A DNA stretch of 64,000 nucleotides from a virus. The position numbers and the translations under genes are program-made. The stretch is from positions 1 to 64,000 of the IMG/VR virus record IMGVR_UViG_3300045988_120048; one strand, given 5' to 3'. This document shows positions 6,531 through 48,690 of the stretch, in pieces (the stretch's first letter is position 1; each line of letters begins with the position of its first letter). The notes under the pieces are model-generated. The model worked only from the letters and a program-made list of their open reading frames with translations. It was not told the DNA's origin and did no database searches.

Positions 6531-6603
6531 CCGGGGTGAGTGAAACGGCTTACACGTCTGTCTCATAAGCAGAAAACAGTGGGTTCGACTCCCACACACC
6601 CGA
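6531..6603 (+). tRNA. tRNA-like with CAU anticodon (initiator-like; imperfect acceptor stem)
   Basis: D-arm GTGA..ACAC, anticodon stem TCTGT/GCAGA with loop CTCATAA, T-arm GTGGG-TTCGACT-CCCAC; acceptor CCGGGGT/ACACCCG has two mismatches. Confidence 0.5.
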
Positions 6604-6990: not shown

Positions 6991-7088
6991 TAACTAATTT
7001 CCTGTCAAGCCTCTTAACAATGCTCAAATCGTACAGGCTCATTTTGAAAACAATAATTATGATATACAAATTTCTTTAAGAAAGGATG

Positions 7089-10756: not shown

Positions 10757-10829
10757 GCCCTCTTAACTTTAATGGTAGAGTGCCTGTCTTGTAAACAGGA
10801 AGTTGTCGGTTCGAGTCCGGCAGAGGGCT
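10757..10829 (+). tRNA. tRNA-Thr (anticodon UGU)
   Basis: Acceptor GCCCTCT/AGAGGGC, anticodon stem CCTGT/ACAGG with loop CTTGTAA, T-arm GTCGG-TTCGAGT-CCGGC. Confidence 0.7.
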
Positions 10830-13755: not shown

Positions 13756-13814
13756 TGGAAAGTCCTAAGCATGACCTGAAACTGCTTACTATGGGGATGT
13801 TTGGTTTTGATTGC

Positions 13815-13838
13815 ATAGGAGATAAGAAGCACAGCAAA
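13815..13838 (+). promoter_or_regulatory. conserved intergenic motif, instance (GGAGATAAGAAGCACAGCAAAGAC)
   Basis: Same family; followed by a 280-nt structured noncoding region. Confidence 0.4.
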
Positions 13839-13929
13839 GACAGTTGGAAAGACAACAAAACAATAAATGCTAGAGTTATTAATATGACTCCTGCTTATCA
13901 GGCTGCTGCCTAATAAGCCGAGCAGCACT

Positions 13930-14040
13930 TGCTTAGGAACAGAAAGGTGCGCCATTGACAATTCTATAAGTTCTCTGTATACTTTAGGAACAGAGTGGTG
14001 GAAGTTGACAGTATATCAATCCTGTCAGCCCTAAAAGACA
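13930..14040 (+). repeat. imperfect tandem direct repeat (TTAGGAACAGA..GTG...TTGACA, two copies) in noncoding region
   Basis: TTAGGAACAGAAAGGTGCGCCATTGACAAT and TTAGGAACAGAGTGGTGGAAGTTGACAGT about 55 nt apart; preceded by hairpin GCTGC-15nt-GCAGC at 13895-13920. Confidence 0.4.
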
Positions 14041-14075
14041 AGGATAGTCTTTAAAACCTATGCTGTAAGAATGCT

Positions 14076-14112
14076 TTGATGCAAATATGTAAGACAGGGG
14101 TTCGACTCCCCT
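14076..14112 (+). pseudogene. tRNA 3' fragment (T-arm AGGGG-TTCGACT-CCCCT plus acceptor 3' strand) with no recognisable 5' half nearby
   Basis: ACAGGGGTTCGACTCCCCTCATCTCCA; upstream body does not fold as a tRNA. Confidence 0.35.
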
Positions 14113-14142
14113 CATCTCCACTTAAATGTTATATTTAGAAGA

Positions 14143-15239: not shown

Positions 15240-15313
15240 GGTCCATTTAGTGTAACGGTTAGCACGCAATGCTGTGAACATTGAAGAATGGGTTCGACTC
15301 CCAGGTGTGACCC
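15240..15313 (+). tRNA. tRNA-His-like (anticodon GUG, extra 5' G); acceptor 3' strand pairs poorly
   Basis: G(-1)+GTCCATT, D-arm GTGT..GCAC, anticodon stem CAATG/CATTG with loop CTGTGAA, T-arm TGGG-TTCGACT-CCCA; the 3' acceptor strand is not complementary as I read it. Confidence 0.45.
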
Positions 15314-17225: not shown

Positions 17226-17987
17226 ATGAAAGATTTTCAATTTTTAGATTACCACACGGAATATTCATGTAAAGGTGCCTTTAAGAAGGATATGGATGTA
17301 GAAGCATGCTTCTCATTCGTATTTAGACACACCGACGAGGAAAATGTAAGTGAAGAATATGAAGTTATCCTTTATAAGGGAACTGATTTTTCTAGAGAAA
17401 AGCATAATTCAAATTCGTGTCTCTTTACAAAGAAACAGATAAGGAACCATCTCAGACAAGCTCAAGGTATTTATCCATTCGATTTCTACATTACAGAAGT
17501 CACCAACTGGGGAGATGGTTATAATGTATTTAAGGTTCGCTTAAAACTCACTAACGTTCCTGGTACGTTTCATAAGTATCTTTTAACTTGGCTGAGATAT
17601 ATGTATGAGTACCCTTATAATGTTATCTTATATGATGCTTATAAGTTAAAAAAGGACCCATGCTTTAGGTTCACCTCTATGTCTGACTTGTTTAATCTTG
17701 TGCTAGGCTGTTTTAACGAAAATCCTAGAGATATTCATCAAATAGCTAGGAACCAAGTTAGCAAGACTATGTTAAAGAGAGACATTAGAGAGAAACTTCA
17801 GAATATCAAAATGTTAAATAACGTTTATGATAAGTTGAAGAATAAAGGCAATAACAACCAAATTCCAAATGAAGATGGAGATCTTACCACCTCTGATTTT
17901 GAATTTTGGGAAAGCGACGACATCTTCGAAAGACGAAGAAAGCCAGTTTACATGAATGTTTATAAAGAAGTAATAAAGAAGAAATGA
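17226..17987 (+). CDS. hypothetical protein
   Basis: ORF track, 253 aa. Confidence 0.45.
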   Translation: MKDFQFLDYHTEYSCKGAFKKDMDVEACFSFVFRHTDEENVSEEYEVILYKGTDFSREKHNSNSCLFTKKQIRNHLRQAQGIYPFDFYITEVTNWGDGYNVFKVRLKLTNVPGTFHKYLLTWLRYMYEYPYNVILYDAYKLKKDPCFRFTSMSDLFNLVLGCFNENPRDIHQIARNQVSKTMLKRDIREKLQNIKMLNNVYDKLKNKGNNNQIPNEDGDLTTSDFEFWESDDIFERRRKPVYMNVYKEVIKKK

Positions 17988-18613
17988 AGATTTATGTTGT
18001 AGGTGGAGCTGATAACTACGTCAACTTCATTGAAAATGTGCAGCTTGTTGATAAACTTGAAGATGCACAATTAGTAGTATTCACCGGCGGAGAAGATGTC
18101 ACACCTTCTCTTTATGGATGTAAGAAGCATAGAACTACTTATTCCAACCTTAGAAGAGATCAGGCAGAACAGGCTATCTTCAATAAGATAGACCCAAAGA
18201 AACAGGTTTGTCTTGGAATTTGCCGTGGATCTCAATTTCTATGTGTGATGAATGGTGGCAAGCTTGTCCAAAATGTGACGAGTCATGCTACTGGATTTAC
18301 CCATGGGATAACTGATGGCGACAAGATTTATCAAATAACTTCTACCCACCATCAGATGCAGTATCCATTTAATCTTAATGGGGAAGATTATGATATCCTG
18401 TTTGCATCTTATGGAGTAGAGAGTGACTATTATGAAGGGGAAGGAATAGACCCTAACGTTGTTCTTGGAAGAGAACCAGAAATTGTTTTATATCATAAGA
18501 AGGGATTGCCTAAGTGTCTCGCAGTACAAGGTCATCCTGAGATGATTCCTGATTCTCCTGTTGCTGAAATGATTAATAACCTTGTAAAAGATCTCGTAAA
18601 TGAAATTGCGTAA
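17984..18613 (+). CDS. class-I glutamine amidotransferase-like / gamma-glutamyl hydrolase (peptidase C26 family)
   Basis: GICRGSQF (nucleophile Cys), HH pair and AVQGHPE motifs characteristic of GATase1/C26. Confidence 0.65.
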   Translation: MKIYVVGGADNYVNFIENVQLVDKLEDAQLVVFTGGEDVTPSLYGCKKHRTTYSNLRRDQAEQAIFNKIDPKKQVCLGICRGSQFLCVMNGGKLVQNVTSHATGFTHGITDGDKIYQITSTHHQMQYPFNLNGEDYDILFASYGVESDYYEGEGIDPNVVLGREPEIVLYHKKGLPKCLAVQGHPEMIPDSPVAEMINNLVKDLVNEIA

Positions 18614-19067
18614 TGTAACTATTGGTGCAGACCCAGAACTGTTTATTATTAATGAGAAGACAAAGAAGGTAGTGTCTGCCGTTGGATTAATCCCTGGTGA
18701 AAAAGGCAATCCATGGAGATCTGATGATATGCCAGAGGGCTTTGGACTTGAGACTGATAATATTCTTGCAGAATTTAATATTCCTCCTGTTAAGGATGGA
18801 ATAAACTTTGTTAACAACATCGTTTATATGCAGGAGTATATAGATAAGTTTGTTAAGAGTAAAAATCCTGACCTTGGCATCAAATGTATAGCCTCCCAGA
18901 CCGTACCTACATCTGAATTGCAGAGCGATCAAGCTAAGCTTTTCGGATGTGATGTTGATTATAACGCCTATACAATGAAGGCAAACCCTAAGCCTAAGGG
19001 TACATCAACTAATCTTCGCTCTGCTGGTCGAATAAGTGAGGGCCAGAAGTATAGAAATATACAGTAG
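18600..19067 (+). CDS. amidoligase (COOH-NH2 ligase, glutamine-synthetase-like fold) 5' exon
   Basis: ADPELF N-terminus typical of phage Amidoligase_2 proteins. The ORF is broken by TAG and a LAGLIDADG gene; the C-terminal continuation (FHIHVGYENP...) resumes at 20192. Confidence 0.5.
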   Translation: MKLRNVTIGADPELFIINEKTKKVVSAVGLIPGEKGNPWRSDDMPEGFGLETDNILAEFNIPPVKDGINFVNNIVYMQEYIDKFVKSKNPDLGIKCIASQTVPTSELQSDQAKLFGCDVDYNAYTMKANPKPKGTSTNLRSAGRISEGQKYRNIQ

Positions 19068-20191
19068 AATTGCGTAAAAACGGTGAATGATAAATTCCTA
19101 TAAATAATTTTGAATTGCTGGAATAATTTTGTATTTTTGGTTAAATTAAGTTTAACTATAAAAATATCGAATTATGACAGAATTTCAACAAATTGTAATT
19201 AATCTAGTTAATGAAGGCAAAACTGTTTCCGAAATTGCAAAACAATTAAATAAAAATATGTCTTCAGTATCTTCAGTTGTTAAAAGATTTAATTTAACTC
19301 CTAAAAAAGCTTATGAAAATACTATCAAAGATGACTTTTTTGATGTAATAGACACAGAAGAAAAAGCCTATCTTTTAGGATTTTTTATAGCTGATGGATG
19401 TATAAATAAATCTACAAGTAGGTGTAAAGGTAGATTTTCAATTAATCAATCTGAAGATGATAAAGAAATTGTAAAAGCTTTTAAGGAGTATTTACAAGTA
19501 CCTTCAAAAATTCAATTAATAAATAATCAATCAGGTGTAAAACATAGAAAAACACAATGGAGAATTAGATGGACATCAGTTCATATGATGGAAACTATGG
19601 AAACTATTTATAATATACACCCACATAAAACTACAGATATTGAATTTGAATTTCCTATAAAATTAATTCCTGAAAATTTACAAGGACATTTTGTTCGAGG
19701 TTTTATTGATGGAGATGGTTATATGGGAAATAATGGAGAAATAAATAATTTTTCAGTAAGTATAGTAGGTGTAAGTGAAAAATTTCTTACTATGATTGGA
19801 GATTTAATTTCTAATACTACTGGAATGACTTACAATTTATATAAATCAAAAGGAAAAACTGTTGATTATATAAGTTTAAGATGGTTCTCTGAAGGTAAAA
19901 ATAAACTAGAAAAAATTACAAAATTAAAAGATTATTTATATAAAGATGCTACTATATATCTTTTTAGAAAGAAAAAAGAAATAGATGCATATATTAAATA
20001 CCGTGCTAATGTATTGAATAATATCAATACACAGTGTAACGCGTAGGAGATGAACCTGGAAACAGAATATAATTCTCCCAAGAGTGCGCAACCCTTAACA
20101 GATAATGCTGAAGGTGAAAATGTACGCTGAACTACTACGAAGGAATATAAGTAGTAGAATTAGAGGATAAAAAGCCTCTAAGATAACAAAA
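19068..20191 (+). mobile_element. intervening sequence (probable group I intron) carrying a LAGLIDADG homing endonuclease gene, splitting the amidoligase gene
   Basis: Host ORF broken at 19067 and resumed at 20192; HE ORF embedded; AT content markedly higher than flanks. Core intron elements not clearly recognised by eye. Confidence 0.5.
19174..20046 (+). CDS. LAGLIDADG homing endonuclease (double-motif)
   Basis: Motifs YLLGFFIADGCI and FVRGFIDGDGYM; N-terminal HTH-like segment; very AT-rich codon usage. Confidence 0.75.
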   Translation: MTEFQQIVINLVNEGKTVSEIAKQLNKNMSSVSSVVKRFNLTPKKAYENTIKDDFFDVIDTEEKAYLLGFFIADGCINKSTSRCKGRFSINQSEDDKEIVKAFKEYLQVPSKIQLINNQSGVKHRKTQWRIRWTSVHMMETMETIYNIHPHKTTDIEFEFPIKLIPENLQGHFVRGFIDGDGYMGNNGEINNFSVSIVGVSEKFLTMIGDLISNTTGMTYNLYKSKGKTVDYISLRWFSEGKNKLEKITKLKDYLYKDATIYLFRKKKEIDAYIKYRANVLNNINTQCNA

Positions 20192-20557
20192 TTGTTTCAC
20201 ATTCATGTGGGATATGAAAATCCTGACGTAGATACTAGTCTTGCTCTTGTAAAGTATATGGATGCCTTTTTAGGTATTCCTTCCGTCGTTAAGGATAAAG
20301 ATAAGAAACGTCGCTCTCTTTATGGTAAAGCCGGCTGCTTCCGTTTAACTGACTACGGTGTTGAGTACCGAGTTCTTAGTAGTGCAATGATGGGTTCCCC
20401 TTCTAAGTTGTCCTTCATCTGGAAGCAATTGCAGAAGGCTTTGAAAGCTTATCAGACCAACTATAGTCTTCCAAGTAGAGATTTAGTTCAGGAAGCCATT
20501 AATAACAGTAATGTTGAACTAGCTGAACAGTTAATAACTCATTATAATTTAGCATAA
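20192..20557 (+). CDS. amidoligase 3' exon
   Basis: Begins FHIHVGYENP (Amidoligase_2 catalytic His motif region). TTG in the track is probably not a real start; this is exon 2. Confidence 0.5.
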   Translation: MFHIHVGYENPDVDTSLALVKYMDAFLGIPSVVKDKDKKRRSLYGKAGCFRLTDYGVEYRVLSSAMMGSPSKLSFIWKQLQKALKAYQTNYSLPSRDLVQEAINNSNVELAEQLITHYNLA

Positions 20558-20559
20558 TT

Positions 20560-21906
20560 ATGTGTGGAATATTTGGTATCGTTACAAAGAGCATGAGGTC
20601 TTTTGACTTTCCAACTTTCTGTACATTAGGTATTGCTAATGACAGTAGAGGTGGTGACTCTTGTGGCTATTTTATTGATGGACACTACGAGTATGGAGCA
20701 AAAGGCGATGATAAGTGGTTCCAGTGTTTTTTCCAAGACAATAAGTTCCTTAATGAGCTTAAAATGAGTTCGGTAGCTTTTGGTCATTGTAGAAAAGCGT
20801 CTGTTGGTATCATCGACGAAACAACTGCTCAGCCAGTGGTACTTACTAATGCCAATGGAAAGGTAGAATATGTTCTAATGCATAATGGAACTATCTATAA
20901 TTACAAGGAGTTAGCTAAAAAATACATACCAGATATTGATATTACTGGTATGACTGACTCTCAGGTAATGGCTAGAATTTTCTATCGTTCTGGATACAAG
21001 GCACTCAGTGAGTATAACGGTGGAGCAGTGTTTGCAATTGCAGACTACCGTGGTGGAAAACCAAAGATTTTACTCTTTAAAGGAGCCTCCAAGAAAGACA
21101 AGTGGGATAAGAAGGAAACGGATGAACGTCCATTGTACTTCTGTGTCGATCCTATAAAGGGAGAGTTAATTTTCTCTTCTATTGCTTCTTATTTAATGTC
21201 TCTTAGACATAAGCTCACAACTTGGATTTTAAATCCAAATTGCCTCTTTGAGTTTAATGGTAAGGACTTAATTGCCGTTGAGGAAGTTTCTAGAGCCAAT
21301 GCTTGTCAAAGGAAGGAAACCGTATATGTAACTCCATCTAAATATGGTGGAAAATATTGGGGAGAATTTGGGCTGGAAGAAAGCAATGGTAATCTTTACG
21401 ACGATTTTATTTCGACTAACCAAGTAGATAATACTTATCATGGAAGGGGCAAAAAGCTCCAAGGACGAGTAATACTTAGTAAGTATGGAATGATGATGGA
21501 TGAAGCTCCTAAGAAGTCAACATATAAGGAGATATTCTTCTGGGATGGAGTTGCTCTTAAGAATGTTGCGTGCTTTCGATTTCTTACAGTCCTTAAGAAG
21601 GACAGCAAGCTCGAAGATAAAGAGTTTAATAAGAAGTTTAAGAACCTTATAAGGTATTTGAGCGTTGATGGTGTATATCATGAGAAGGATGTATGGTATC
21701 GAGCTACCTCTCCAACTAAGAGAGTTCCTTTTACAGGAACATTAAACATGATTACATCAACTTCTTCTACAGAATTTTTTGCTGGAAGCAGAAGAACTAC
21801 TAAATATGGTAGGACTTCTGATGAGGCATTTAGTTCTCTAGAGGAAGCTAAATTGGATGTTAATTTTAAAACAATTAAGGAAGAATGCAAGTCTTTGATG
21901 AAATAA
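20560..21906 (+). CDS. class-II (Ntn) glutamine amidotransferase domain protein
   Basis: N-terminal MCGIFGIV with catalytic Cys2, as in the Gn_AT_II family. Confidence 0.65.
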   Translation: MCGIFGIVTKSMRSFDFPTFCTLGIANDSRGGDSCGYFIDGHYEYGAKGDDKWFQCFFQDNKFLNELKMSSVAFGHCRKASVGIIDETTAQPVVLTNANGKVEYVLMHNGTIYNYKELAKKYIPDIDITGMTDSQVMARIFYRSGYKALSEYNGGAVFAIADYRGGKPKILLFKGASKKDKWDKKETDERPLYFCVDPIKGELIFSSIASYLMSLRHKLTTWILNPNCLFEFNGKDLIAVEEVSRANACQRKETVYVTPSKYGGKYWGEFGLEESNGNLYDDFISTNQVDNTYHGRGKKLQGRVILSKYGMMMDEAPKKSTYKEIFFWDGVALKNVACFRFLTVLKKDSKLEDKEFNKKFKNLIRYLSVDGVYHEKDVWYRATSPTKRVPFTGTLNMITSTSSTEFFAGSRRTTKYGRTSDEAFSSLEEAKLDVNFKTIKEECKSLMK

Positions 21907-22784
21907 CTAAAAGATGGGTGAGCTCTCGAAATTGTGCGAGGATTATCATCCAACAACTCCCAGAGCAAGTTATCTTCGGATATACTAGTAAGCCTGATAA
22001 GGTTGTTAGAGTTCTTATAGCTAGCTCTAGTGGGCATAGTAATTACTTTGAAACGGATTTAAATCTATATAAGGGGAAACTCTTGTATAGTAAGAGAAAT
22101 GGAGTATACTTTTCTCCTATCCATCACAACGAAGATTTTATACTTACAGAGCAGCTCATAAAGGGTTTCGGAGATTTTCCTTATATTCTTACTAGAAGGT
22201 ATGAAGCTGTAGAGAATTTCGATGCTTTCAATGGAAAGCAAGAAATCAAAGACCATGAAACTTTGTATCCCTTATCAAAATATTTAAAGTACACTTTTGG
22301 ACTGGAGTTCGAAACATCTCAAGGATATGTGCCTGAGGACGTATGTTATCGAGATGGATTAATCCCATTAAGGGATGGATCCATTACCGGACCAGAGTAC
22401 TCTACCGTTATACTGAAGGGAGGAGAGGGACTTTCTCTTCTTCATCAGCAGATAGAGACACTCAAAGAGTATACTAACTTTAATAAGGAATGCTCTCTAC
22501 ATGTTCATCTAGGAGGTTATCCTCTTAAGCCTGATACTATCTACAATCTTTATCTTGTATGTAAATCTATTGAACCTGAGCTGGAAAATATGCTTCCTGC
22601 TTTGACTTTCAATAGTGCTAGATATAAGGATAATGGTAAAGACTATTGTAAAAAGCTTGCTTTGTACGGTAGTTTTGAGGATATGTATTCACATCTAGTG
22701 GGAAGACAATTCTTCGGAAGCTTTACCCAAGCTCATCCTGATGATAAAGAACGAAAAAGAAAGTGGAATATACCAACTCGTTAG
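21885..22784 (+). CDS. amidoligase paralog, 5' exon
   Basis: FGLEFETSQG...SLHVHLGGY motifs of Amidoligase_2; ORF terminates at TAG-TAA immediately before intron-like sequence. Confidence 0.6.
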   Translation: MQVFDEITKRWVSSRNCARIIIQQLPEQVIFGYTSKPDKVVRVLIASSSGHSNYFETDLNLYKGKLLYSKRNGVYFSPIHHNEDFILTEQLIKGFGDFPYILTRRYEAVENFDAFNGKQEIKDHETLYPLSKYLKYTFGLEFETSQGYVPEDVCYRDGLIPLRDGSITGPEYSTVILKGGEGLSLLHQQIETLKEYTNFNKECSLHVHLGGYPLKPDTIYNLYLVCKSIEPELENMLPALTFNSARYKDNGKDYCKKLALYGSFEDMYSHLVGRQFFGSFTQAHPDDKERKRKWNIPTR

Positions 22785-23085
22785 TAAAATGGCGAGGCTA
22801 ACTGGAGACAGTTAGAAAAATAAATTGGGTGAATTTAGGGAAACCTAAATAAAATCATTATATTTGTAGTATATCAATTTATGCTACAAAGTAAGTGATT
22901 TTACAAGGCAATCCTAAGCCAAGCTATAGCTTAACAACTATAGAAGGTTCAGAGACTAACAGTTGAAACTCCTTTTAAGGAGAATATAATACTGACACGA
23001 GCGCCCGACATCCTTATGGGATGAAGATATAGTCCGATACCTAGAGGAAACTTTAGGATGCAAGATAAAGAACTTGCTATAACAT
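22785..23085 (+). mobile_element. group I intron (ORF-less) in amidoligase paralog
   Basis: Contains GGTTCAGAGACTAACAG (R element) and GAAGATATAGTCCGA (S element) in correct order; flanked by the two halves of one amidoligase reading frame. Confidence 0.7.
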
Positions 23086-23424
23086 TTGTATTATTGGTGT
23101 AATTTCATTAATGCTCTTTGTTATCAGGTAAATAAAACTATCGAGTTTAGATTTCTTCGTCCAACCTATAGCTTTAAGAAGATCCTCCTATGGCTTTATA
23201 TATTCAACGGCATTTTAAGATATGCTGAGGAGTACTATGTGCCGGGATGTCACACTAATCTAACTGTGATTATGCAGAAGTGTTATCCTTCGGACTTGGC
23301 AAAAGAACTTTGCCTTGGTATAAAGAAGCTTTGGGCACTTAGTGTAAATCAGCGTGGAAACGGTGATCCTATCGGAGCTGACGTTTGGATGGAGGAAGAA
23401 TTGTTTAACAGCTTAAAGATTTAA
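23086..23424 (+). CDS. amidoligase paralog, 3' exon
   Basis: Track ORF (TTG start artefact); continues the amidoligase after the intron. Confidence 0.5.
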   Translation: MYYWCNFINALCYQVNKTIEFRFLRPTYSFKKILLWLYIFNGILRYAEEYYVPGCHTNLTVIMQKCYPSDLAKELCLGIKKLWALSVNQRGNGDPIGADVWMEEELFNSLKI

Positions 23425-23430
23425 CAAAGT

Positions 23431-24012
23431 ATGGCAAAACAGGTATTAGAAATTGAAGTTCCAGATGGTAAAAAAGCCATTTGGAAGGATGGTCGTGTTG
23501 TCTTCGAAGATGTAGATACTATGGAAAGTATCAAAACTATCGAGGACGCTGCTCAATTTCTCGCAGACAAGAGGATCTGTGAGGATATTCTGGACTCATT
23601 ATCTAGACTTCCTAAGGACTCATTTGAGTGGAAGATAGCTGCTTATAGGGCAGTGGTTGCAGCTGTAACCTATAATGAACAGAGGCATCTTACCACTGGA
23701 GAACGTTGGTTTCCTACTATTGAGTTCTGTCGACCTGGAAAGCTTAAGAATTGTTGCGGTGACATCGTTGTAGGACGAATCAAATCAGAAGGAGAAGAGT
23801 TCGATGTCGTGGGCGGTCACGCTTATAACGGCGCGAGTGCGGGTCTCGGTTCCTTCTACTCGTCTTACGGCGTGTCTTACGCCTGGACGTATATCGGCTT
23901 CCGGTCGGTTGGTTCAAAGAAAGCCGCTCTATACATTTCTAAGCAATTTGGAAAGCTTCTGTTTGAGGTTAGTTATGGTGGTACGAACTGTGATTGGAGA
24001 TGGATGGCATAG
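23431..24012 (+). CDS. hypothetical protein (contains a local GC-rich patch 23800-23900)
   Basis: ORF track, 193 aa. Confidence 0.45.
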   Translation: MAKQVLEIEVPDGKKAIWKDGRVVFEDVDTMESIKTIEDAAQFLADKRICEDILDSLSRLPKDSFEWKIAAYRAVVAAVTYNEQRHLTTGERWFPTIEFCRPGKLKNCCGDIVVGRIKSEGEEFDVVGGHAYNGASAGLGSFYSSYGVSYAWTYIGFRSVGSKKAALYISKQFGKLLFEVSYGGTNCDWRWMA

Positions 24013-24088
24013 TCATAATCTGTATATCAGTAGTAGCACTATTCATTGTAGACACAATTTGTGACACTATTAAGGATTGTAAGAAAAA

Positions 24089-24610
24089 ATGATGGAGTGG
24101 TATTACATTCTGGGAATCATCTCTTATGGTATTTTCATTGTCCAATTCCTTCTCTCCAACTTCTTTGGTTGGGGAGATTTGGATTTAGACATTGATTTTG
24201 ATGGTGAACCAGACTTTGGACTTGGAGATGTTCTCTCCTTCAAAGGATTAGTTCATTTTGCAATGGGCTTCTCCGGATGGCTTATGCTGGCGGGAAAGGT
24301 TACCCTTACCACCTTAGCAATAGCTTCTGTAATTGGTTTTGCATTTATTGTGATTTTATACTATGCCTATAGGCTATGTTTAAAGTTCAATAGTGAACCC
24401 CAAATCAAAAGTGGAGAAAGTTTAGTTGGAAAGGAAGTAGCAATTTCTGTCCAGATTTCAGAAATGGAATACTCTGGAAACTGTATAACAGACTCTGGAT
24501 ACATTCCATTGGATAGGTGCAGACTTTCAAAGCCAGCAAACCACACAATAAAGTGTGGAGACATTCTTCACATTGACTCGTATAAGTCAGGAATTTATTT
24601 TATTTCTTAA
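24089..24610 (+). CDS. NfeD-like membrane protein (N-terminal TM helices plus C-terminal beta-rich OB-like domain)
   Basis: Hydrophobic N-terminal half; immediately upstream of and co-oriented with an SPFH/flotillin gene, the classical NfeD-flotillin pairing. Confidence 0.45.
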   Translation: MMEWYYILGIISYGIFIVQFLLSNFFGWGDLDLDIDFDGEPDFGLGDVLSFKGLVHFAMGFSGWLMLAGKVTLTTLAIASVIGFAFIVILYYAYRLCLKFNSEPQIKSGESLVGKEVAISVQISEMEYSGNCITDSGYIPLDRCRLSKPANHTIKCGDILHIDSYKSGIYFIS

Positions 24611-24628
24611 TTAATAAAAATTTTATAA

Positions 24629-26437
24629 ATGTTAACAGAAAGTTTAGTTATTGCAGGCGCAATAGTTGTGCTTGTAATCTTGACCCTCATCGGTCTTATG
24701 TCACGTTATCGTCGTTGTGCAAGTGATGAAATCTTGGTAGTCTTTGGTAAGACTGGCAAGAAAGTTGGAATTAATCCAGCAACTGGCAAGAAGGAAACAA
24801 CAATTCTTCCTTCTAAGATCATCCATGGCGGAGGTACCTTTGTATTCCCTGTAATTCAGGATTGGAAGAAGATGTCTCTGAAACCAATTCAGATTCAGAC
24901 AGAGGTAGAAGGTGTGTCAAGTCAGATGATTAAGGTCAAGATTCCGGTTACCTTGACTACTGGAATTGGTACAACTGATGTACTCATGCAAAATGCTGCA
25001 AGTCGTTTCCTGACTGCTAAACCTGATGAGATTTCTGCTCAAATTACTGATATTCTTATTGGTGAAATGCGTGCTTTGATGGCTACTATGACCATTGAAG
25101 AGATCAATGCTGACCGAATCAAGTTCCTTGGTAATGCTAAGGAGGATATTGAGACTGAATTGAACAAGGTAGGTTTCAGTATTATTAACATTAACAATGC
25201 TGATATTACTGATGATGCTGACTATATTAAGAATCTTGGTAAGAAGGCAGCTACCAAGGCAAAGGCTCAGGCTGAAGCAGACATCGCTGAGGAGGAAAAG
25301 AAGGGTGACATTCAGATTGCTGAAACCAATAAGGAGAAAGCAATTGCTGTAGCTGCTGCAGAGAAGGATCAAGCTACTCAGGTGGCTCAGACTAAGCAGG
25401 AGCAGGAAGTAAAGGTTGCCGAGATCGAGAAGAACAAGGCAATTAGTCTTGCAGAGGCTGATAAGACTAAGGAGTCTGAGGTTGCTAATCAGCAGGCTGA
25501 TAAGGAAGCTGCTACCGCTGCTGCACAGGCTCGTTCAGCTGCTGCTGTAGCAAAGTCTGAAGCAGATGCTCTTGCTGCACAGGCAGAGGCAGAGGCTGAG
25601 AAGAATATTCGTATGGCTAAGGCTGAACAGCAGCAGGAAGCTGAAACCAGAAAGGCTATTAATGAGCAGGAAGCTAAGGTAGCTGAGTATGATGCTGAAA
25701 AGCGTAAGCGTACAGCTGAAGCTAATAAGCAGGCAGGCGTAGCTGAGCAGACAGCAACTATTGAGGTTTCTAAGGCACAAGCTGAGGCTGCTAAGGCACA
25801 GGCTGAAGCAGTCCGTGTTGAGGGTGTATCTAAGGCTGAAGCTGAAGTAGCAATTGCTAAGAAGAATGCTGAAGCTAAGGAGGCACAGTTGAACGCTGAG
25901 TCTATTGTTCCTGCTCAGAAGAAGAAGGAAGCTGTAGTTATTGAGGCTGAGGCTGAGAAGCAGAAGAAGATTGTTGAGGCACAGGCTGAGGCTGAAGCAA
26001 TTAAGCAGAAAGCTTTAGCTGAGGCTCAGGCAATCCAGGCTAAGGCAGAAGCTGAGGCAGAGGGTAACAAGAAGAAACTCCTTGCTGAGGCAGAGGGTAA
26101 GCGTGCCTCTTTGATGGCTGAGGCTGATAAGGTTCAGGCTATTGAGATGGCTCCAGCACTTGCAATTGAGAAGATGATTGAGACAGGTATGACTCCGGAG
26201 ATGATTGTTCAGTATAAGACTGTCGATCAGCTTAAGGGTATTGCCGAAGCTCAGGCTGAGGTTTATGAGCATATCCATCTTGGTGAGGTTACTGTTTATG
26301 GTAACGAGAACACTGCTGGTAACTTCATGGCTTCAATGGCTGAGAATCTCAATCCAGCATTTGAACTTCTCAAGTCTATTCCTTTCAAGAAGACTCTCAA
26401 TGCTATAGCAGGCAAGGAAGAGGTCAAGAATGATTAA
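24629..26437 (+). CDS. flotillin-like SPFH/band-7 protein with long Ala/Glu/Lys-rich coiled coil
   Basis: N-terminal TM segment, SPFH-like region, then about 300 aa of EA/AEA/KAQAEA repeats (flotillin architecture). Confidence 0.7.
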   Translation: MLTESLVIAGAIVVLVILTLIGLMSRYRRCASDEILVVFGKTGKKVGINPATGKKETTILPSKIIHGGGTFVFPVIQDWKKMSLKPIQIQTEVEGVSSQMIKVKIPVTLTTGIGTTDVLMQNAASRFLTAKPDEISAQITDILIGEMRALMATMTIEEINADRIKFLGNAKEDIETELNKVGFSIININNADITDDADYIKNLGKKAATKAKAQAEADIAEEEKKGDIQIAETNKEKAIAVAAAEKDQATQVAQTKQEQEVKVAEIEKNKAISLAEADKTKESEVANQQADKEAATAAAQARSAAAVAKSEADALAAQAEAEAEKNIRMAKAEQQQEAETRKAINEQEAKVAEYDAEKRKRTAEANKQAGVAEQTATIEVSKAQAEAAKAQAEAVRVEGVSKAEAEVAIAKKNAEAKEAQLNAESIVPAQKKKEAVVIEAEAEKQKKIVEAQAEAEAIKQKALAEAQAIQAKAEAEAEGNKKKLLAEAEGKRASLMAEADKVQAIEMAPALAIEKMIETGMTPEMIVQYKTVDQLKGIAEAQAEVYEHIHLGEVTVYGNENTAGNFMASMAENLNPAFELLKSIPFKKTLNAIAGKEEVKND

Positions 26438-26537
26438 CCTTTGTTAATTTTGTAAATTAACTAAGAATTAGTATCTTTATAAGTCTACTTGATATGGGTA
26501 TTAAATGTACTCTATCGAGTAGACTTTTTTATCATTT

Positions 26538-26621: not shown

Positions 26622-26746
26622 CATTATTATTAATTTTTGATGGGCATTCTTCCCTTATATGTTTAAAAAGAAATGATTTATGTATTATGTAGAGCAAATG
26701 GTTTGAAGAAAAAGAAAATTTAGAGAATATGATTCTCGTGTAGAAA

Positions 26747-27595
26747 ATGAGTTATGAAGACATAGGTAGACATTATGGTTGTAGTGGCTCAAATATTAAG
26801 AAAGTTGCTATTAGAATTGGTATTCAACTCCCTTAGAGAAGAAAATCAAAAGAAAGTGAAACTTTCAATAAGGGAACTGGACAGAAGTATTACTGTCTGA
26901 ACTGTGGAAAGTTGTTAAATCAAGACAATGGTGGTAGCTACAAGCATAAATTTTGTGATAACAAATGCTAGAGGGAATATCAGCACAAAATTGGGTATCA
27001 GAAAATACTAGATGGAGATTCATCAATAATGAGGGCTAATTACTCTCCACATGCTTTTAAGGACGATATACTTCAGGAACAAAATGGAGTATGTGCTATA
27101 TGTGGTTCAAAGCCTGAGTGGAATGGTAAACCTCTAGTATTTATTTTGGATCATATAGATGGTCATGCATCTAATAATATTAGAACTAATCTTAGATGTA
27201 TATGCCCAAACTGTGATTCTCAATTAGATACCTATAAATCTAAAAACAAATGTGGAGAAAGGAGTTACTATCGCTATCATAAATATGAGGATATAACTAA
27301 GCAAAAAGATAATGAACTAGTATTTAAGGAACTAAATCTCAATTTAGACATAAAGGTATGTACTATAGGGGGAGAAGAAATCAACCTTACAAAGAATGAA
27401 TTTAATCTCCTTGAATTTCTTATAAAGAACAAGAACAAAATACATTCTAGACAGGAAATCCTTAATAATGTATGGGATTCTAAAGTTTCTTTAAGAACTG
27501 TAGATACTACTATGTCGAGGTTGCGTAAAAAAATGAAAAATTTAGGTAAGTATTTAATAACTAGATTAGGATTTGGATACGGTATTTTGGAATGA
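26747..27595 (+). CDS. HNH endonuclease fused to C-terminal OmpR/PhoB-type winged-helix domain; two in-frame TAGs (26834, 26969)
   Basis: ATG 26747 gives MSYEDIGRHYGCSGSNIKKV...YCLNCGKLL...FCDNKC-TAG-..., paralogous to the N-terminus of the 5539 gene. It continues in frame into track ORF 27029-27595, which has HNH motifs CAICG...LDHIDGH...CPNC and a trans_reg_C-like LTKNEFNLLEFL...RTVDTTMSRLRKKM. Confidence 0.6.
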
Positions 27596-27945: not shown

Positions 27946-28959
27946 ATGAAAAATTTTATGAAGAAATTTATTTTCATCATGAGTTTGCTGTTTACTCTGT
28001 GTAGTTTTACCTACTCACAAACAGCGTATGAAGAATCTAAAATCCTTGATAACACTTCTATTAGTGTTGTAGGTGGAGCAACTACTCCTCTGGACTTTAA
28101 CTCAGTATTTCCAGTAAATGGAGTTGCTGGTATTAAGTTGCAGAAGGACTTTACTCCTGTATTTGGGTTTAATATCGAAGGATTGGCTTCCTTTGGTGAT
28201 AACCACTATGGTAGTGCTCCTACTGTAGTAAAATCTGTTAATACCGGATTGAACGGAGTTGTTAACTTCTCTAACCTGCTGTGCGGATATAATGGAGCCC
28301 CTCGGAGGTTTGAAGTAAGCACTGAGACTGGTATTGGCTGGCTGCATAGTTGGACAGGACACTGTAACTATATTACCTCTAAAACTGGAGCGGTATTGTC
28401 ATTCAATCTAGGTAAGGAGAAGGCTCACTCGATTATAGTTAATCCTGCAGTATACTGGAATCTGAACAAGACAGGTCATGTAGAGTTCAATAAGAATTAT
28501 GCTCAGCTTGGTGTCTTGATTGGATGGGTATATCACTTTAAGACTTCTAATGGTACAAGAAGCTTTAAGGCATATGACATTGCATCAATGAACAATGAAA
28601 TTAATTCTCTTAAGAAGGATTTAGCAAAGAAACCTACAGAAATTGTAAAGGAAGTTGTTAAGACTGAAGTTGTTACTAATACAATTGGTAACACAGTGAT
28701 TTTCTTTGCACAAAATTCTGCAAAACTTACTGGAACCGCAATGTCTGAATTGTCTAAGATTCCATCTGGTTCTAAGGTAAGCATTATTGGTTCTGCGTCT
28801 CCAGAAGGCTCCTCTAATTACAATCAGAAGTTGTCGGAGAAACGTGCAAAAACTGTTTCCAAATTCTTAACTGGAAATGGTGTAATCGTAGAGAATTGTA
28901 TTGGAGCTGGTGTTACTGACACTACTAGTGGTCGTGTAGCAATAGTTACTATTAAGTAA
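27946..28959 (+). CDS. OmpA-family outer-membrane protein (signal peptide, beta-rich N-domain, OmpA-like C-domain)
   Basis: Signal peptide MKNFMKKFIFIMSLLFTLCSF; C-terminal GSASPEGSSNYNQKLSEKRAKTV matches the OmpA-like domain motif (NxxLSxxRA). Confidence 0.65.
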   Translation: MKNFMKKFIFIMSLLFTLCSFTYSQTAYEESKILDNTSISVVGGATTPLDFNSVFPVNGVAGIKLQKDFTPVFGFNIEGLASFGDNHYGSAPTVVKSVNTGLNGVVNFSNLLCGYNGAPRRFEVSTETGIGWLHSWTGHCNYITSKTGAVLSFNLGKEKAHSIIVNPAVYWNLNKTGHVEFNKNYAQLGVLIGWVYHFKTSNGTRSFKAYDIASMNNEINSLKKDLAKKPTEIVKEVVKTEVVTNTIGNTVIFFAQNSAKLTGTAMSELSKIPSGSKVSIIGSASPEGSSNYNQKLSEKRAKTVSKFLTGNGVIVENCIGAGVTDTTSGRVAIVTIK

Positions 28960-29138
28960 AACTTTAGGTAACAAACATCTCCCACTGACTCGTTTAAATA
29001 TCGTAAATTACCTTAAAATTAATCATTTGGGTTAGAAAGAAAAAGAACGTACGATAGGTGCTGGGACAATGGAATGTTATAATAAAACCAGTGAAAATAA
29101 CCTAAACTCATTTCTAGTTGGAGTATAACTAACTAGAT

Positions 29139-29218
29139 TACCTCCTTATATCAGTGGTAGAAGTTTAACAAAGTCTATATTAGTGAAACTGTCAGTGGTT
29201 CGAATCCACTAGGAGGTA
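29139..29218 (+). ncRNA. tRNA-like element (perfect acceptor ACCTCCT/AGGAGGT and T-arm AGTGG-TTCGAAT-CCACT; body does not fold into a canonical anticodon arm)
   Basis: Middle segment is about 6 nt longer than a class I tRNA; only an AGTTT/AAACT stem with a 19-nt loop is evident. Confidence 0.4.
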
Positions 29219-29253
29219 CTACCTGTTCCTGTAAACAAAAAAAAAAGAAGAAA

Positions 29254-30528
29254 ATGGCTGATTTTAATATGAGTAAATTGTGGCTCGGTAAAGATGGATA
29301 TTACCGAGATGTAAACGGCAACAAGATTGCCTAGAAAGGGCAGCCCATTTCTGGTGCTGCTTGGAGATATTTAGCAGGAAAATATGGAAGGGAAGTTGCC
29401 AATAGAACCTCAATGAATACTAGAAATGGAAACATATTCTAGAATGGACGTTGGCGTTTTAATGATATCAAATCTTCTAAGCAAGGGAAAACTGCTACAT
29501 GGGATGAAGCAGCTTCTAGAATAGAGGAAAATGCAAAGGCAGCAGGAGCTAGAAAGACAGCAACCGGCTATACATAGAGAAACCCTTTCAATAATAAAGA
29601 TACCTATCTAAATCAAGATACAAAGAATAAAGCTATGAAGGCTTATAGAGCACGACAGAAATCATAGACTTCTGCTGAGAATCCTGATGAATTTAGTTGG
29701 AGTGATCTAAATCCTTTCAAGAAAGGTGCTTGGGAAGGCAACTGGGATAGTGCAGCAAAAAACTTCGTTGATTCCTTTAAATCAATTCCTGATATTTGGA
29801 AAAAGGGGTATGCTAGAAGAGGTGAAATGTACGATAATGTTCCTCAGAGTGTGTTGGGTCCAAAACGAAACACAGGTGCTTTGGCACGATTCAATGATAC
29901 TCTTGGAGATATTTCTAGAACTGGAAATGCTGTTCTGGGAGGAACTATTGGAACTGCCTTGCAGCTCTTGCTACCATAGAAGGTTGAGAGAGAAGCTGGC
30001 AATCTAGGACAATATCTAGATCTAGGTAAAGATGTTAACTCTGTCAGAAGTTATTTAACTCCAGGAGAAGAAGGAATATTGCCAGATGATCCTAGGAATA
30101 AGGGATTTGCTGATTAGAATTTTGCCTGGACTGGACTAGACGAATAGTAGAGAAGAAATATTAACGATGATGCCAACTTTGCTATGGCTATCCTTGGAAC
30201 TAAAGGTATGAAGGGTGGAGTCTCTAGACTTAAGACTGGAGTCTCTGGAATGATAAGAGATGGAGTAGGTACTACGCTGAAGAATAATTGGAAACCTATT
30301 ATGTCTCATACACCAGGTGCTGCTAACCTTTATTAGGCTGGAAGTGCACTTAATTCTGTAAGAAGGGCATTAGCCCCTAAGAGACTAGGAGGAGCAGAAG
30401 GAATTGGCAGTAGATCTGCAAATGTAGGAAAAGCTGCATTTCAGGGGCTTATGGCTTCAGATCCTACTATGGCACTATACCCTTATGCACATAGCAGTTA
30501 TATGGTAAATTTATCTAATAATAATTAA
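29254..30528 (+). CDS. hypothetical protein encoded with about 9 in-frame TAG codons (read-through required); ends at TAA
   Basis: One frame is continuously open from ATG 29254 to TAA 30526 except for TAG codons (for example GCC TAG AAA; TTC TAG AAT; GAA TAG TAG AGA). No in-frame TAA or TGA. Track ORF 29726-30007 is in a different, spurious frame. Confidence 0.55.
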
Positions 30529-30530: not shown

Positions 30531-31997
30531 ATGAGTATTAAAAAGAAGGCACAATATTTAGGTGAGGGAGTAAATTGGTTAAAAGGTCATGGTTAGATGA
30601 TACCAGATTACTTCGGAAACCTGATGAGACGAATTGGAGGAGGTGAGAGAGCTGTAGTTAGAGCTAGGCAAGCTTCTCCAGAATTAATTGCATCTAGAAA
30701 TAGTTAGAGAGGAGCTGAAATGAGTCATAATCTTGCAGCTCAAAGATATAAAGAAGCTTAGCAAGCAGAAAGTAAATTATTAGACAGCACTAAAAATTGG
30801 AAGTAGCCTAATAGTAAAAGAAATGTAAAGAGAGTAAATGATGCTGCGCGAAAAACAGATGAAGCTGAAAGAAGTGCAATAACTGCATCATAGAAAAGTA
30901 TGGAAGCTAAGGAAGCTTTCAATAATACTAAGAGACAGGTTACGAATGATGCCCTAAGACAAGTTAGGAATAAAGGTATTAAAAGAACTCTTAAAACTAC
31001 TGGACTTGTAGGTGGTCTTGGTACTGGAGCTTATCTAGTTATTCCAAGAAATTCTAAATCACCTAGTGCTGCAGCTGAAAAGAAATTAAACAAGCTTGCA
31101 AAGTAGAAAATATTGCAGTAGACAGGTAGTTGGAGACCTACATAGAAGATGAGAGAAATCAACTTAGAAGGGAAGAAGCAGTCCATCAGGGATGCAAAAG
31201 CCATGAGGAGTGCAGCTTCTAAGGCTCAACTCAAATGGATGTAGGAAAACTCTGATAAAGCTACCAAGGTTTACAAGAGTGGCGCTAGAGAATTTGGAGG
31301 GGATGAAAATAAATTAGCCCTTCTAAAGGTTAGACAAGAAGCAATGAAACCATTCATTTCGTAGGAAGCAAGTAAAATCCGAAGGAATAGAGCATTAGGT
31401 ACTTTAGGCTTAGCCGGACTTGTCACTGCAGGTTATAACTTTGAACCAACTAACTTTTATGTTCACGATCTTCATAAAGGGTGGAGAAATAAAATTGGTT
31501 TGGATTCAAAGAGTACAACTCGTACCGAAAAAGATATGTCAGATAACTTCAATAATCAAATTCAAGAGTTGGCTGCTCTGGCAATAGCCTCTGATTAGAA
31601 GGGATTAACTCCTTGGGTTTACCAAGTGTATAATAGATCACATGGCAGGGAAGCTAAATATGCAGATTTTAGTAATCCTATAAAATTCCTTAACCCTGGA
31701 TAGAGAGTTGAATATTCTAATGGAGGTATGAGCATGTCCTAGTCTAGAAATAAGGATGGATTTAATGTAGTATTAACTGACGAAGCAGCTTGGGATCCAG
31801 ATTAGGGTGCATCCTATTCAGCACTTTCTCCTAGAGGACTTCCAGTTACATTAGGAGTGACTAGGAAGAATTTGGGAAATAATATTGACAAAATGAGATA
31901 TTAGTATAATATCCCGCTCGAAAAGGTAGATAGTATGCGGAATGTATACAATAAATATTCTGAAATAATAAGAAAAGAAAGAGAAAATAAGGCATGA
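30531..31997 (+). CDS. hypothetical protein encoded with about 23 in-frame TAG codons; ends at TGA overlapping the next gene's ATG
   Basis: Frame open from ATG 30531 to TGA 31995-31997 apart from TAGs; contains track ORF 30900-31106 in the same frame; no in-frame TAA or TGA. Confidence 0.55.
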
Positions 31998-47599: not shown

Positions 47600-48690
47600 A
47601 ACACATTAGATATTTTGAGAACCCACGAAATATTATTATATTTATATCATAATAATTAACTTAATTTATTTTTGATATGAATAGAAAATATAACGATTCT
47701 CAAATCATTGAATTACATTCTGCTGGTCTTACAGACCGAGAAATTGCTGAAACTCTTGGTGTATCTCCTAATAATCTTGCTACTAAGAGAAGGAAATTGG
47801 GACTTACTCCAAATAAAAGTAAGAGAGACACATATAAATTAACAAAGAAAGAATTAGAAATTTTAGTAGGAACCATATTAGGAGATTCTACTATTAGGTA
47901 TGTGCACAGTCAGTGCAAATATCCAAATCTAACTTTTTCACATGGACTTAACCAAAAGGAGTACTTCGATTGGCTTACTGATAAGTTATCTAATCTGAGA
48001 TCTTCCATCGGAAAATATAATTCTAAGTATATTAGAACAAACGGGGAAATCGCTGAAAGATTAGTTTATACAGGAAGTAATATGTTCTGTTTGAAAGAAC
48101 TTCGTGACGTTTTTTATACGAAAGAGGGAAAGAAAATTATCCCCATTGAGTATATCAAGAGTATCTTCTCTGAATTAAGTCTATATTGTTTATTTATGGA
48201 CGATGGAAGTTATGATATTAGAAGCAATAGCTATATAATTAATACACAATGTTTTTCTAGAGAAAATCTCGAAGAATTTGTATGTTTATTACATAACAAA
48301 TTTGGGCTTGATTTTAGTATTAAGTCTGATAATTGTCTATATCTAAAGCATTCGTCAAATGAACAAATGTATAAAATCCTTACTTCAGTAAATGAATGTA
48401 AATCAATGGACTACAAATGTGGTAGTCGTCGTAAAACTCCGTTAAACGGGGAAACCCCAGAAATGGACAATCCCGTGCTAAACCCTCAAGAAATTGAGGA
48501 AAATGCCGATCGACTAGAGGTGATGCCAAATAAGTAATGTTGTGGCTATAAAATCCTCCACGAAAGCGGGGCACTACTCAAAGTACAGTTCGAGAGAATA
48601 GGAAATGAGCCAAAGATATAGTCAGGACTATATAGTAATATATAGAACTGGAGGATAAAGAGCCTTCAGGATAACATATCGTTCCAGTAT
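47600..48690 (+). mobile_element. group I intron carrying a LAGLIDADG homing endonuclease, splitting the Sak4-like ATPase gene
   Basis: P/Q-like element TAAACGGGGAAACCCCAGAAATGGACAATCCCGTGCTAAAC at 48444-48485 (homologous copy in the ligase intron at 63790), S element AAGATATAGTC at about 48608, R-like GTTCGAGAGAATAG at about 48586. Confidence 0.65.
47677..48537 (+). CDS. LAGLIDADG homing endonuclease with N-terminal HTH
   Basis: Motifs ILVGTILGDSTI and LYCLFMDDGSY; N-terminal HTH (LTDREIAETLGVSPNNL). Confidence 0.7.
   Translation: MNRKYNDSQIIELHSAGLTDREIAETLGVSPNNLATKRRKLGLTPNKSKRDTYKLTKKELEILVGTILGDSTIRYVHSQCKYPNLTFSHGLNQKEYFDWLTDKLSNLRSSIGKYNSKYIRTNGEIAERLVYTGSNMFCLKELRDVFYTKEGKKIIPIEYIKSIFSELSLYCLFMDDGSYDIRSNSYIINTQCFSRENLEEFVCLLHNKFGLDFSIKSDNCLYLKHSSNEQMYKILTSVNECKSMDYKCGSRRKTPLNGETPEMDNPVLNPQEIEENADRLEVMPNK

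Follow-up and report, generated by a model that had tools for sequence, protein, structure and literature searches.

A flotillin-like SPFH gene and its NfeD-like membrane partner in a gut phage, probably a large crAss-like phage of the zeta type

The DNA analysed in this study is a stretch of 64,000 nucleotides (nt) of the IMG/VR virus record IMGVR_UViG_3300045988_120048, referred to here as the window, which carries two adjacent genes: a small gene for a membrane protein of 173 amino acids (aa) and, directly behind it, a gene for a 602-aa protein of the SPFH superfamily. The reading of the 602-aa protein as a flotillin-like SPFH member of a Bacteroidales-type subfamily is well supported by its sequence, and so, by sequence and structure prediction, is that of the 173-aa protein as a short NfeD-like membrane partner of flotillin. 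On these comparisons we are highly confident of the identity and the origin of the pair. The best explanation we can offer for its presence is that it is a captured Bacteroidales-type membrane-scaffold operon serving the upkeep of the infected cell's membrane, which we put at slightly better than an even chance. What is described here is a well-supported annotation with an evolutionary story and not a new mechanism.

The 602-aa protein matches Pfam Band_7 (PF01145) with E 8e-21 and 75.3 bits against a cut-off of 23.6. An earlier note on this DNA, made from its letters alone, had proposed just this SPFH/band-7 identity, and both of its open reading frames (ORFs) lie exactly where it had placed them. 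The SPFH region aligns with residues 20-194 of human flotillin-1 and, at an hhalign probability of 97.8%, with residues 21-179 of E. coli YqiK. There is one hydrophobic segment in the protein, residues 1-28, which AlphaFold2 (AF2) models as a helix over residues 2-29, in agreement with the single N-terminal transmembrane (TM) helix described in the note. At the end of this anchor S25, R26, Y27, R28 and C30 are invariant across the aligned phage homologues, and the R and Y of this flanking stretch and the Cys are still invariant when bacterial homologues are added to the alignment; by the positive-inside rule the protein would be oriented with its N-terminus out and its C-terminus in. The Ala/Glu/Lys region of about 300 residues that had been noticed earlier was recovered as residues 205-500, which are 29% Ala, 17% Glu, 14.5% Lys and 9% Gln (70% together) and in which autocorrelation finds hydrophobic positions recurring with an 11-residue period. 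AF2 predicts three very long helices (199-276, 286-422 and 432-519) in addition to the TM helix and an alpha/beta SPFH region, and residues 307-486 align with the helical region of flotillin-1. Beyond the helices there are invariant columns at 547-566, with AF2 strands near 550-556, and by analogy with other SPFH complexes this C-terminal region may close a cage.

Among proteins of solved structure, the sequence search of the PDB returned flotillin-1 and flotillin-2 as the only matches at E <= 0.001 (E 2.8e-21), and these matches extend over the SPFH domain and into the helical region. The top five Foldseek hits were also flotillin, above prohibitin, stomatin, the vault protein and HflK/C, the last of which appeared at rank 30 or lower; the model being a low-confidence one, this ranking is used as supporting evidence only. 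Homologues of the 602-aa protein number 2777 at E <= 1e-10. The note had itself named the alternative that would undo its proposal, namely that the repeat protein belongs to the structural coiled coils, like a tail fibre or a tape measure, and a long helical region rich in Ala, Glu and Lys does bear a superficial similarity to such proteins. This alternative is ruled out by the Band_7 domain, the TM anchor and the flotillin-only matches in the PDB, and the PHROG search gave no tail or tape-measure match for the protein; we give it, together with the idea of a bacterial window taken up below, next to no credence.

In the 173-aa protein AF2 predicts a five-stranded beta domain over residues 116-172 with a predicted local distance difference test (pLDDT) score of 85-91. 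Its OB fold resembles solved NfeD domains, with generic OB folds such as that of eIF1A ranking next. The sequence link to NfeD is a transitive one. At E <= 0.001 we found 106 homologues of the small protein, and the family profile drew in 880 clusters (50% identity) at E <= 0.001. The same profile also picks up small proteins encoded upstream of bacterial flotillin genes. Two such flotillin-adjacent members, from Pseudodesulfovibrio and a planctomycete, score above the gathering score of Pfam NfeD (31.5 and 29.2 bits vs 29.1), and the phage-family profile reaches these two NfeD-passing bacterial members with E 3e-12 and 2e-5. Distant members of the family score just below the gathering score of Pfam NfeD PF01957, at 27.9 and 27.2 bits (E 2.7e-6 and 4.4e-6). 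It is because of the OB-fold structure together with this transitive link that we assign the protein as NfeD-like, and it has the membrane anchoring and the adjacency to an SPFH gene that mark the short NfeD or YuaF class. The NfeD-like partner proposed in the earlier note thus stands on its TM helices, its OB-fold domain and the transitive link, whereas the direct match to an NfeD hidden Markov model (HMM) fails.

The N-terminal half of the small protein, comprising three helices and an acidic loop, is covered by no Pfam family in the 173-aa protein or in 64 close homologues. The Pfam matches of these 64 homologues were of the chance membrane-protein kind, with NfeD in 2 of the 64 (E 0.12), and a profile search of PDB sequences with the small-protein family gave an unrelated TM helix of ErbB2 as its sole match. 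In our two alignments (A1 and A2) an SFKG-x-x-HF motif at residues 50-57 is invariant, as are D34, D36 and D38 of the acidic loop; G39 is near-invariant. Eight of the 25 residues from 26 to 50 are Asp or Glu, and AF2 confidence is low over the loop. The D-x-D-x-D-G pattern is one that we take to resemble known calcium-binding loops, and from this resemblance a putative role of the loop in binding divalent cations can be suggested. The coordinates of all features of the pair are given in Table 1.

Table 1. Positions in the window of the two genes, the elements around them and the regions of their products
Feature	Position	Strand	Basis
Small membrane protein gene, 173 aa	24089..24610	+	ATG start, TAA stop
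Membrane-embedded N-terminal half of small protein, residues 4-100 (helices 4-25, 51-68, 73-100)	24098..24388	+	hydropathy, AF2
Acidic loop of small protein, residues 27-50, with D-x-D-x-D-G	24167..24238	+	alignments
C-terminal OB-fold domain of small protein, residues 116-172, NfeD-like	24434..24604	+	predicted structure
Intergenic spacer, 18 nt, no terminator	24611..24628	+	read from sequence
Flotillin-like SPFH gene, 602 aa	24629..26437	+	ATG start, TAA stop
N-terminal membrane anchor of flotillin-like protein, residues 1-28, then basic RYRR	24629..24712	+	hydropathy 3.04; AF2 helix 2-29
SPFH / Band_7 domain, residues 33-224	24725..25300	+	Pfam PF01145
Helical region rich in Ala/Glu/Lys/Gln, residues 205-500	25241..26128	+	composition, autocorrelation, AF2
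Conserved C-terminal region, residues 501-602, with HLG-x-VTVYG and short beta element	26129..26434	+	alignments, AF2
Intrinsic-terminator-like hairpin, 20 bp, then U6	26481..26532	+	RNA folding

Our search for cellular relatives, which covered one genome per bacterial species, found the best flotillins on the chromosomes of Bacteroides, Phocaeicola, Parabacteroides, Prevotella and Leyella, with full-length alignments at 38-40% identity. All of the examined cellular loci with enough upstream sequence, including 39 Bacteroidales chromosomal loci, have a gene of the same small-protein family directly 5', and the same arrangement occurs at greater distance in Flavobacteriia, Planctomycetota and Clostridia. 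In the Bacteroidales operon, too, the small gene precedes the flotillin gene, and about 20 nt separate the two. Its small protein (e.g. WP_099147419.1, a RefSeq 'hypothetical protein') belongs to the same family as that of the phage (HMM E 1e-31 to 1e-46, about 32-36% identity); both have the D-x-D-x-D acidic loop, and nearly all have SFKG-x-x-HF. The Bacteroidales flotillin resembles the phage protein in that its only Pfam match is Band_7. In contrast, the phage flotillins are longer (602-657 aa vs about 550-566); about 17 residues are inserted early in their SPFH region, and their helical region is longer. The phage pair is carried on a viral genome where that of Bacteroidales is chromosomal.

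The same adjacent pair is found in a second large gut phage, the epsilon crAss-like crAssE-Sib (GenBank OR575929.1, where it is spelled 'csAssE-Sib'), in which it is annotated as a 'transmembrane protein' (WOZ57346.1) and a 'flotillin family protein' (WOZ57345.1). These proteins are only 40% (flotillin) and 34% (small protein) identical to those of the window, and their gene neighbours differ, being replication genes and an acyl carrier protein gene. The paper describing crAssE-Sib makes no mention of flotillin or the partner gene. We compared phage and cellular copies in neighbour-joining distance trees with limited sampling, using Poisson distances for the small protein. The phage clade to which the window belongs has support of 99/100 in the flotillin tree and 121/200 in the small-protein tree, Bacteroidales bacteria group with crAssE-Sib at 100/100 and 140/200, respectively, and all three together are held at 100/100 and 200/200. 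Because the small-protein tree mirrors the flotillin tree, the trees establish that both genes travelled together, and capture of both by the ancestor of the phage clade from a Bacteroidales-like host is well supported by them. The crAssE-Sib pair groups with bacterial copies and not with the phage clade, and so the trees indicate two independent captures, one in the zeta-type lineage (see below) and one in the epsilon lineage. At least 80 further viral contigs contain a copy of the epsilon type, with 96-100% identity. An identity of about 40% to any cellular copy means that the capture was not recent.

Flotillin relatives at 99, about 75, about 67, 57 and 51% identity lie on 73 IMG/VR contigs, mostly of 95-190 kb, and also on long gut-metagenome contigs with the same setting of small ORFs on one strand. 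In 80 of the 82 phage-type loci the small gene stands directly 5' of the flotillin gene. One of the two exceptions (L007) is a contig that ends 91 bases upstream of flotillin; in the other (L082, 3139-3982) the small gene and the first 58 or so flotillin codons, anchor included, have been replaced. In a further variant, P0098 (L163:4001-4642, L164, L165), an in-frame fusion joins the N-terminal half of the small protein to the flotillin's C-terminal tail. This type occurs at the same syntenic site on six contigs from several samples, two of them of about 183 kb. Both kinds of decay are found on otherwise similar phage contigs of about 183-186 kb, and these genomes establish, at the level of gene content, that the module is accessory and can be lost. 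Comparisons of intact pairs with unsaturated dS gave ratios of nonsynonymous to synonymous substitution rates (dN/dS) of 0.03-0.13 for flotillin and 0.03-0.37 for the small gene, from which we conclude that both genes are kept under purifying selection. The existence of homologues, the adjacency in 80 of 82 loci and dN/dS well below 1 together settle, for a comparison of sequences, that the ORFs are not chance.

The same data bear on the possibility that the pair is a mere passenger, that is, host DNA picked up by chance that has no role in the phage. The circulation of deletion and decay variants is what one might expect of such DNA. Against this, the pair has stayed intact in 80 of the 82 loci despite divergence down to 51% in flotillin and about 35% in the small protein, dN/dS is far below 1, a second lineage has fixed an independent capture, and identity to cellular copies is only about 40%. 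The conservation and the dN/dS values effectively refute a recent passenger gene, and we give the passenger idea as a whole hardly any credence. As a separate observation, one 270-kb contig (IMGVR_UViG_3300045988_069849; L070 and L080) has the pair twice, in diverged copies of the 68% and 51% types that lie about 180 kb from each other. Two phages may have been joined in a chimeric assembly, or the phage may truly carry both copies.

The window itself has the character of a phage genome. All of its substantial ORFs are on one strand, ARAGORN predicts 17 tRNAs across it, including a suppressor tRNA with the anticodon CTA (amber) at 29140-29219 (+), and reading TAG as sense raises the ORF coverage of the + strand from 47.5 to 57.2 kb. 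Genes with PHROG matches include NAMPT, an anaerobic ribonucleotide reductase, helicases and an exonuclease. The pair is found near-identical (96-100% identity) on IMG/VR viral contigs of 165-175 kb, and the DnaB-like helicase of the window matches, among annotated records, crAss-like phages only (22-28% identity). The zeta crAss-like phages have been tabulated with genomes of 155-189 kb and 30-37% GC (PMC12386605); many members have 17-31 tRNAs, a CTA suppressor and amber suppression, and their hosts are Prevotella, Phocaeicola or Bacteroides (PMC12386605). The window agrees with this table in genome features such as GC, tRNA block, CTA suppressor and amber recoding, and its replication genes resemble those of crAss-like phages. 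On the strength of its gene content, tRNAs, TAG recoding, helicase relatives and the match to the published table, the source of the window is probably a large crAss-like gut phage of the zeta type, and the viral carrier presumed in the earlier note is thereby borne out.

A bacterial rather than a viral window might be suspected from two close homologues, flotillin matches of 67% identity, which sit in bins labelled as bacterial metagenome-assembled genomes (MAGs). These flotillins are found with a phage-type pair on contigs of 140-153 kb and fall inside the phage clade, and for these reasons the contigs are probably mis-binned phage. The phage gene content, the tRNA array and the IMG/VR counterparts exclude a bacterial origin of the window.

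The layout of the pair is that of E. coli yqiJ-yqiK and B. subtilis yuaF-floT (yuaG), in each of which a small OB-fold membrane protein is encoded 5' of a TM-anchored flotillin. YqiK is only 22% identical to the phage flotillin, and a profile of the phage proteins aligns with it over the TM helix and SPFH domain alone. Its match to the Pfam Flot domain is strong (139.8 bits), and this domain is missing from the phage protein. YqiJ matches Pfam YqiJ_N and YqiJ_OB (58.2 and 54.0 bits), neither of which gave a match in the 173-aa protein or its homologues; a public third-party annotation (TPA) record, DAP08671.1, nevertheless names the exact 173-aa protein 'DUF1449', which is the E. coli YqiJ family. 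Since the FloT cut-off and Pfam Flot are not reached and the YqiK alignment is confined to TM and SPFH, the 602-aa protein is not, by these profile comparisons, an orthologue of FloT or YqiK, and direct orthology of the pair to yqiJK or yuaF-floT was rejected. The Bacteroides and Oscillospiraceae relatives of the flotillin likewise gave no Pfam Flot match at E <= 0.01. The canonical operon of the earlier note is therefore right as to layout, which matches that on bacterial chromosomes, and not as to source, which is Bacteroidales-type and not yqiJK or yuaFG themselves.

The eukaryotic flotillin-1/flotillin-2 complex (PDB 9BQ2, 9L3G) is the only solved one that the 602-aa protein matches by sequence, at about 22-24% identity. 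For the flotillins of eukaryotes, neither an N-terminal transmembrane helix nor an NfeD partner has been described. Among viruses, SPFH/Band 7 genes were listed in the T4-like phage genomes 44RR, Aeh1 and RB43 already in 2006 (PMC1524935), and in a 2026 paper the reason for SPFH genes in phages was still called unclear (PMC13239085). Other phage SPFH proteins are gathered in PHROG 200 ('lipoprotein'), a family of the same superfamily that the window protein matches weakly (E 0.003). Relatives of the flotillin type are confined, among 50,697 deposited phage records, to crAssE-Sib and a few fragments. The earlier note had called the finding unusual for a virus; this is fair of the flotillin/NfeD type, which is rare in phage records, but not of phage SPFH genes at large. 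The exact proteins of the window are already in public databases, where the 602-aa protein is named 'flotillin' (NCBI and JGI sources), and we found no paper discussing flotillin in crAss-like or jumbo phages.

Several results weigh against our interpretation of the pair and have to be set beside those that favour it. Searches of Pfam, NCBIfam and PHROG with the 173-aa protein gave no match, NfeD included, and hhalign of a family profile (A3) against E. coli YqiJ was not significant (E 0.061, probability 0.9%, OB region only). The 602-aa protein has no match to Pfam Flot (PF15975) at E <= 0.1, and against the NCBIfam FloT equivalog (NF058507) it reaches 131.9 bits where the cut-off is 700, in a partial match of residues 10-289 to profile positions 4-275 of 477. 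The flotillin architecture named in the earlier note holds for the PDB and Foldseek matches and the long helices, but not for the Flot domain or the FloT equivalog. The AF2 monomer model of the flotillin is poor (pLDDT 57), so that a cage is argued from homology alone. The natural deletion variants mean that the module is dispensable and that the phage can propagate without it. Neither gene of the pair contains an in-frame TAG, while there are 9 in the nearby 29254-30528 and 15 in 30531-31997, and both can thus be translated without the suppressor tRNA; TAG is, however, absent from many other window genes too, which makes this weak evidence of early expression. In the literature, finally, we found no paper on Bacteroides flotillin.

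A transcription unit appears to end with the pair. The spacer between the genes is similarly short in phage and bacterial homologues, and the hairpin that follows flotillin has a minimum free energy of -30.4 kcal/mol (segment 26438-26540; z = -5.25), a value that 0 of 200 shuffled sequences matched. It was skipped by a consensus terminator scanner, probably because of an internal bulge in the stem. A tRNA-Arg begins at 26538, directly 3' of the hairpin. Co-transcription of the two genes seems likely from this arrangement. A sigma-70 promoter scan did no better on the window than on shuffled sequences (13 sites against 9.9 +/- 3.6), and its model is the wrong one for Bacteroidales and crAss-like phages.

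If the pair is a membrane scaffold, its working could be as follows. Both genes would be read into one transcript within the non-structural part of the genome, which is devoted to replication and metabolism, with transcription stopping at the hairpin after flotillin. The flotillin would insert its N-terminal helix into the host cytoplasmic membrane and hold its SPFH domain on the cytoplasmic face. Many copies would then form a ring in which the SPFH domains lie on the membrane, the helices of 11-residue period make up the wall of a dome and the C-terminal segments close it, so that a patch of membrane is fenced in; this model is drawn from the solved flotillin, HflK/C, stomatin and prohibitin complexes. 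The small protein would sit in or beside the patch by its TM helices, with its OB-fold domain docking to the flotillin. The most probable benefit would be that the scaffold is supplied or topped up while the host is being taken over, and that the membrane stays ordered and intact and supports its membrane-bound complexes. Such a role can be likened to that of the neighbouring host-maintenance genes for NAD salvage, nucleotide synthesis, tRNAs and tmRNA. That upkeep, and not one of the rival benefits discussed next, is what the phage gains is a tentative proposal made by analogy, to which we give less than even weight.

The position of the pair among early, non-structural genes, a frequent site of phage functions in conflict, raises the possibility that the cage blocks the entry of competing phages' DNA or shields the membrane from abortive-infection effectors that depolarise or perforate it. 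Envelope genes lie nearby, for instance that of an OmpA-family protein at 27946-28959, the two independent captures in crAss-like phages suggest a strong and specific benefit, and conflict genes, like this module, are typically accessory and at times lost. However, no PADLOC defence model matched the pair or its immediate neighbours (HNH and MotB-like noise fell on other genes), the slow evolution of the flotillin, with dN/dS of 0.03-0.13, is atypical of genes in an arms race, and we know of no example of a flotillin acting as an exclusion or counter-defence device. We consider such a conflict function unlikely.

An alternative in which the cage encloses or restrains a host membrane protease, and phage proteins are stabilised as a result, would have an established precedent in the SPFH cage that HflK/C forms around FtsH. 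One JGI annotation of a family member does read 'implicated in regulation of membrane protease activity', the historical description of NfeD. The phage protein nevertheless groups with the flotillins and not with HflK/C, as seen in the flotillin-only PDB matches and the Foldseek rank of HflK/C, the small protein has no protease domain, consisting like other short NfeD proteins of TM helices and an OB fold, and no protease gene adjoins the pair. Regulation of a protease seems to us improbable. Nor do we see more than a slim chance for a role in lysis timing or as an assembly site, suggested in the earlier note, in which holins would be gathered or held back in the microdomains, or complexes for replication or virion assembly would be anchored at the membrane. 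Firmicutes flotillins have been reported to scaffold membrane complexes. In the window, though, the pair is not beside lysis or structural genes, and the different neighbourhood in the epsilon lineage leaves no conserved neighbour that would indicate lysis or assembly.

It is also conceivable, if rather doubtful, that the cage does something specific to infection beyond membrane upkeep and was captured twice for that reason. It might neutralise membrane-targeting triggers of abortive infection or lysis, or it might co-assemble with the host's own flotillin, as flotillin-1 and flotillin-2 do in mixed complexes. Repurposing of the host flotillin might support the long, non-lytic or carrier-type infections that crAss-like phages are seen to establish. 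If true, this would be the first role assigned to a viral SPFH protein and would give a natural handle on the function of bacterial flotillins.

The function of bacterial flotillins and their NfeD partners is still debated. Here two abundant lineages of human-gut phages, which acquired a complete flotillin operon separately, keep it under selection, and this argues that the scaffold is a real advantage to the virus in Bacteroidales hosts. Were a role shown, membrane organisation would become a further category of auxiliary gene in gut phages, and the phage pair a new probe of flotillin function. The existence of the genes was already known at the level of annotation. To this the present study adds an argument for NfeD from structure and from transitive matches, and it traces the operon as a whole to Bacteroidales. 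It also describes how a large phage clade has retained the operon under selection, together with an independent capture by a second lineage and variants in which the module was lost naturally.

Upstream, the pair is adjoined by an ORF of 193 aa (23431-24012, +) that matches the C-terminal ends of several PHROGs, including a 'tail protein' family, with E 1e-9 to 8e-5. It is probably outside the module, because the epsilon lineage has a different neighbour, the acyl carrier protein gene, in that place. Further upstream lies a cluster of peptide- and amide-bond chemistry genes (17984-23424, +) comprising Peptidase_C26 (gamma-glutamyl hydrolase-like), COOH-NH2 ligase, GATase_6/7 and Amidoligase_2, which is kept in three relatives (L005, L006 and L008). 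A group I intron at 22773-23057 (+) (Rfam RF00028, 88.3 bits, E 3.4e-21) separates an ORF of 299 aa with a weak Amidoligase_2 match (21885-22784) from one of 112 aa (23086-23424). At the corresponding site L008 has a single unbroken gene of 410 aa, and the amidoligase gene of the window thus appears to be split by the intron. The 2-kb bin 24001-26000, in which most of the pair lies, has the highest GC of the window, 41.8% vs about 32-40% elsewhere, which likely comes from the Ala/Glu-rich helical coding of the flotillin and not from a recent foreign origin.

Downstream, the product of the ORF at 26687-27595 (+) combines an HNH endonuclease with a DNA-binding domain of the winged-helix Trans_reg_C type in one fusion protein. 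The ORF continues upstream through four in-frame TAGs, and relatives encode the Trans_reg_C part as a separate gene of 95-96 aa. The OmpA-family protein mentioned above (+ strand) has an N-terminal signal-like sequence and a Pfam OmpA match of E 8.5e-9, and is another envelope-directed gene near the pair; in one relative there are also genes for glucosaminidase and YkuD_2 (L,D-transpeptidase-like) proteins. The suppressor tRNA is followed at once by the two TAG-rich ORFs 29254-30528 and 30531-31997, which are open only with TAG as sense and gave no match in a PHROG search. Just 5' of this tRNA, the stretch 28973-29104 is 85% identical to Lak megaphage genomes.

Elsewhere in the window, Rfam searches detected a phage-encoded transfer-messenger RNA (tmRNA) at 13793-14123 (+) (RF00023, 65.7 bits vs a gathering score of 47), which ARAGORN did not report, and an abiF RNA motif at 7001-7038 (+) (RF03085, 50.2 bits). 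Three tRNA matches beyond the ARAGORN list were also found by Rfam, at 10757-10829, 6531-6603 and 15241-15312 (+). A second group I intron match, at 48363-48645 (+), has 50.1 bits (E 9e-10) and so just reaches the gathering score; it begins within the 3' end of ORF 47677-48537 and stops ahead of ORF 48691-49104.

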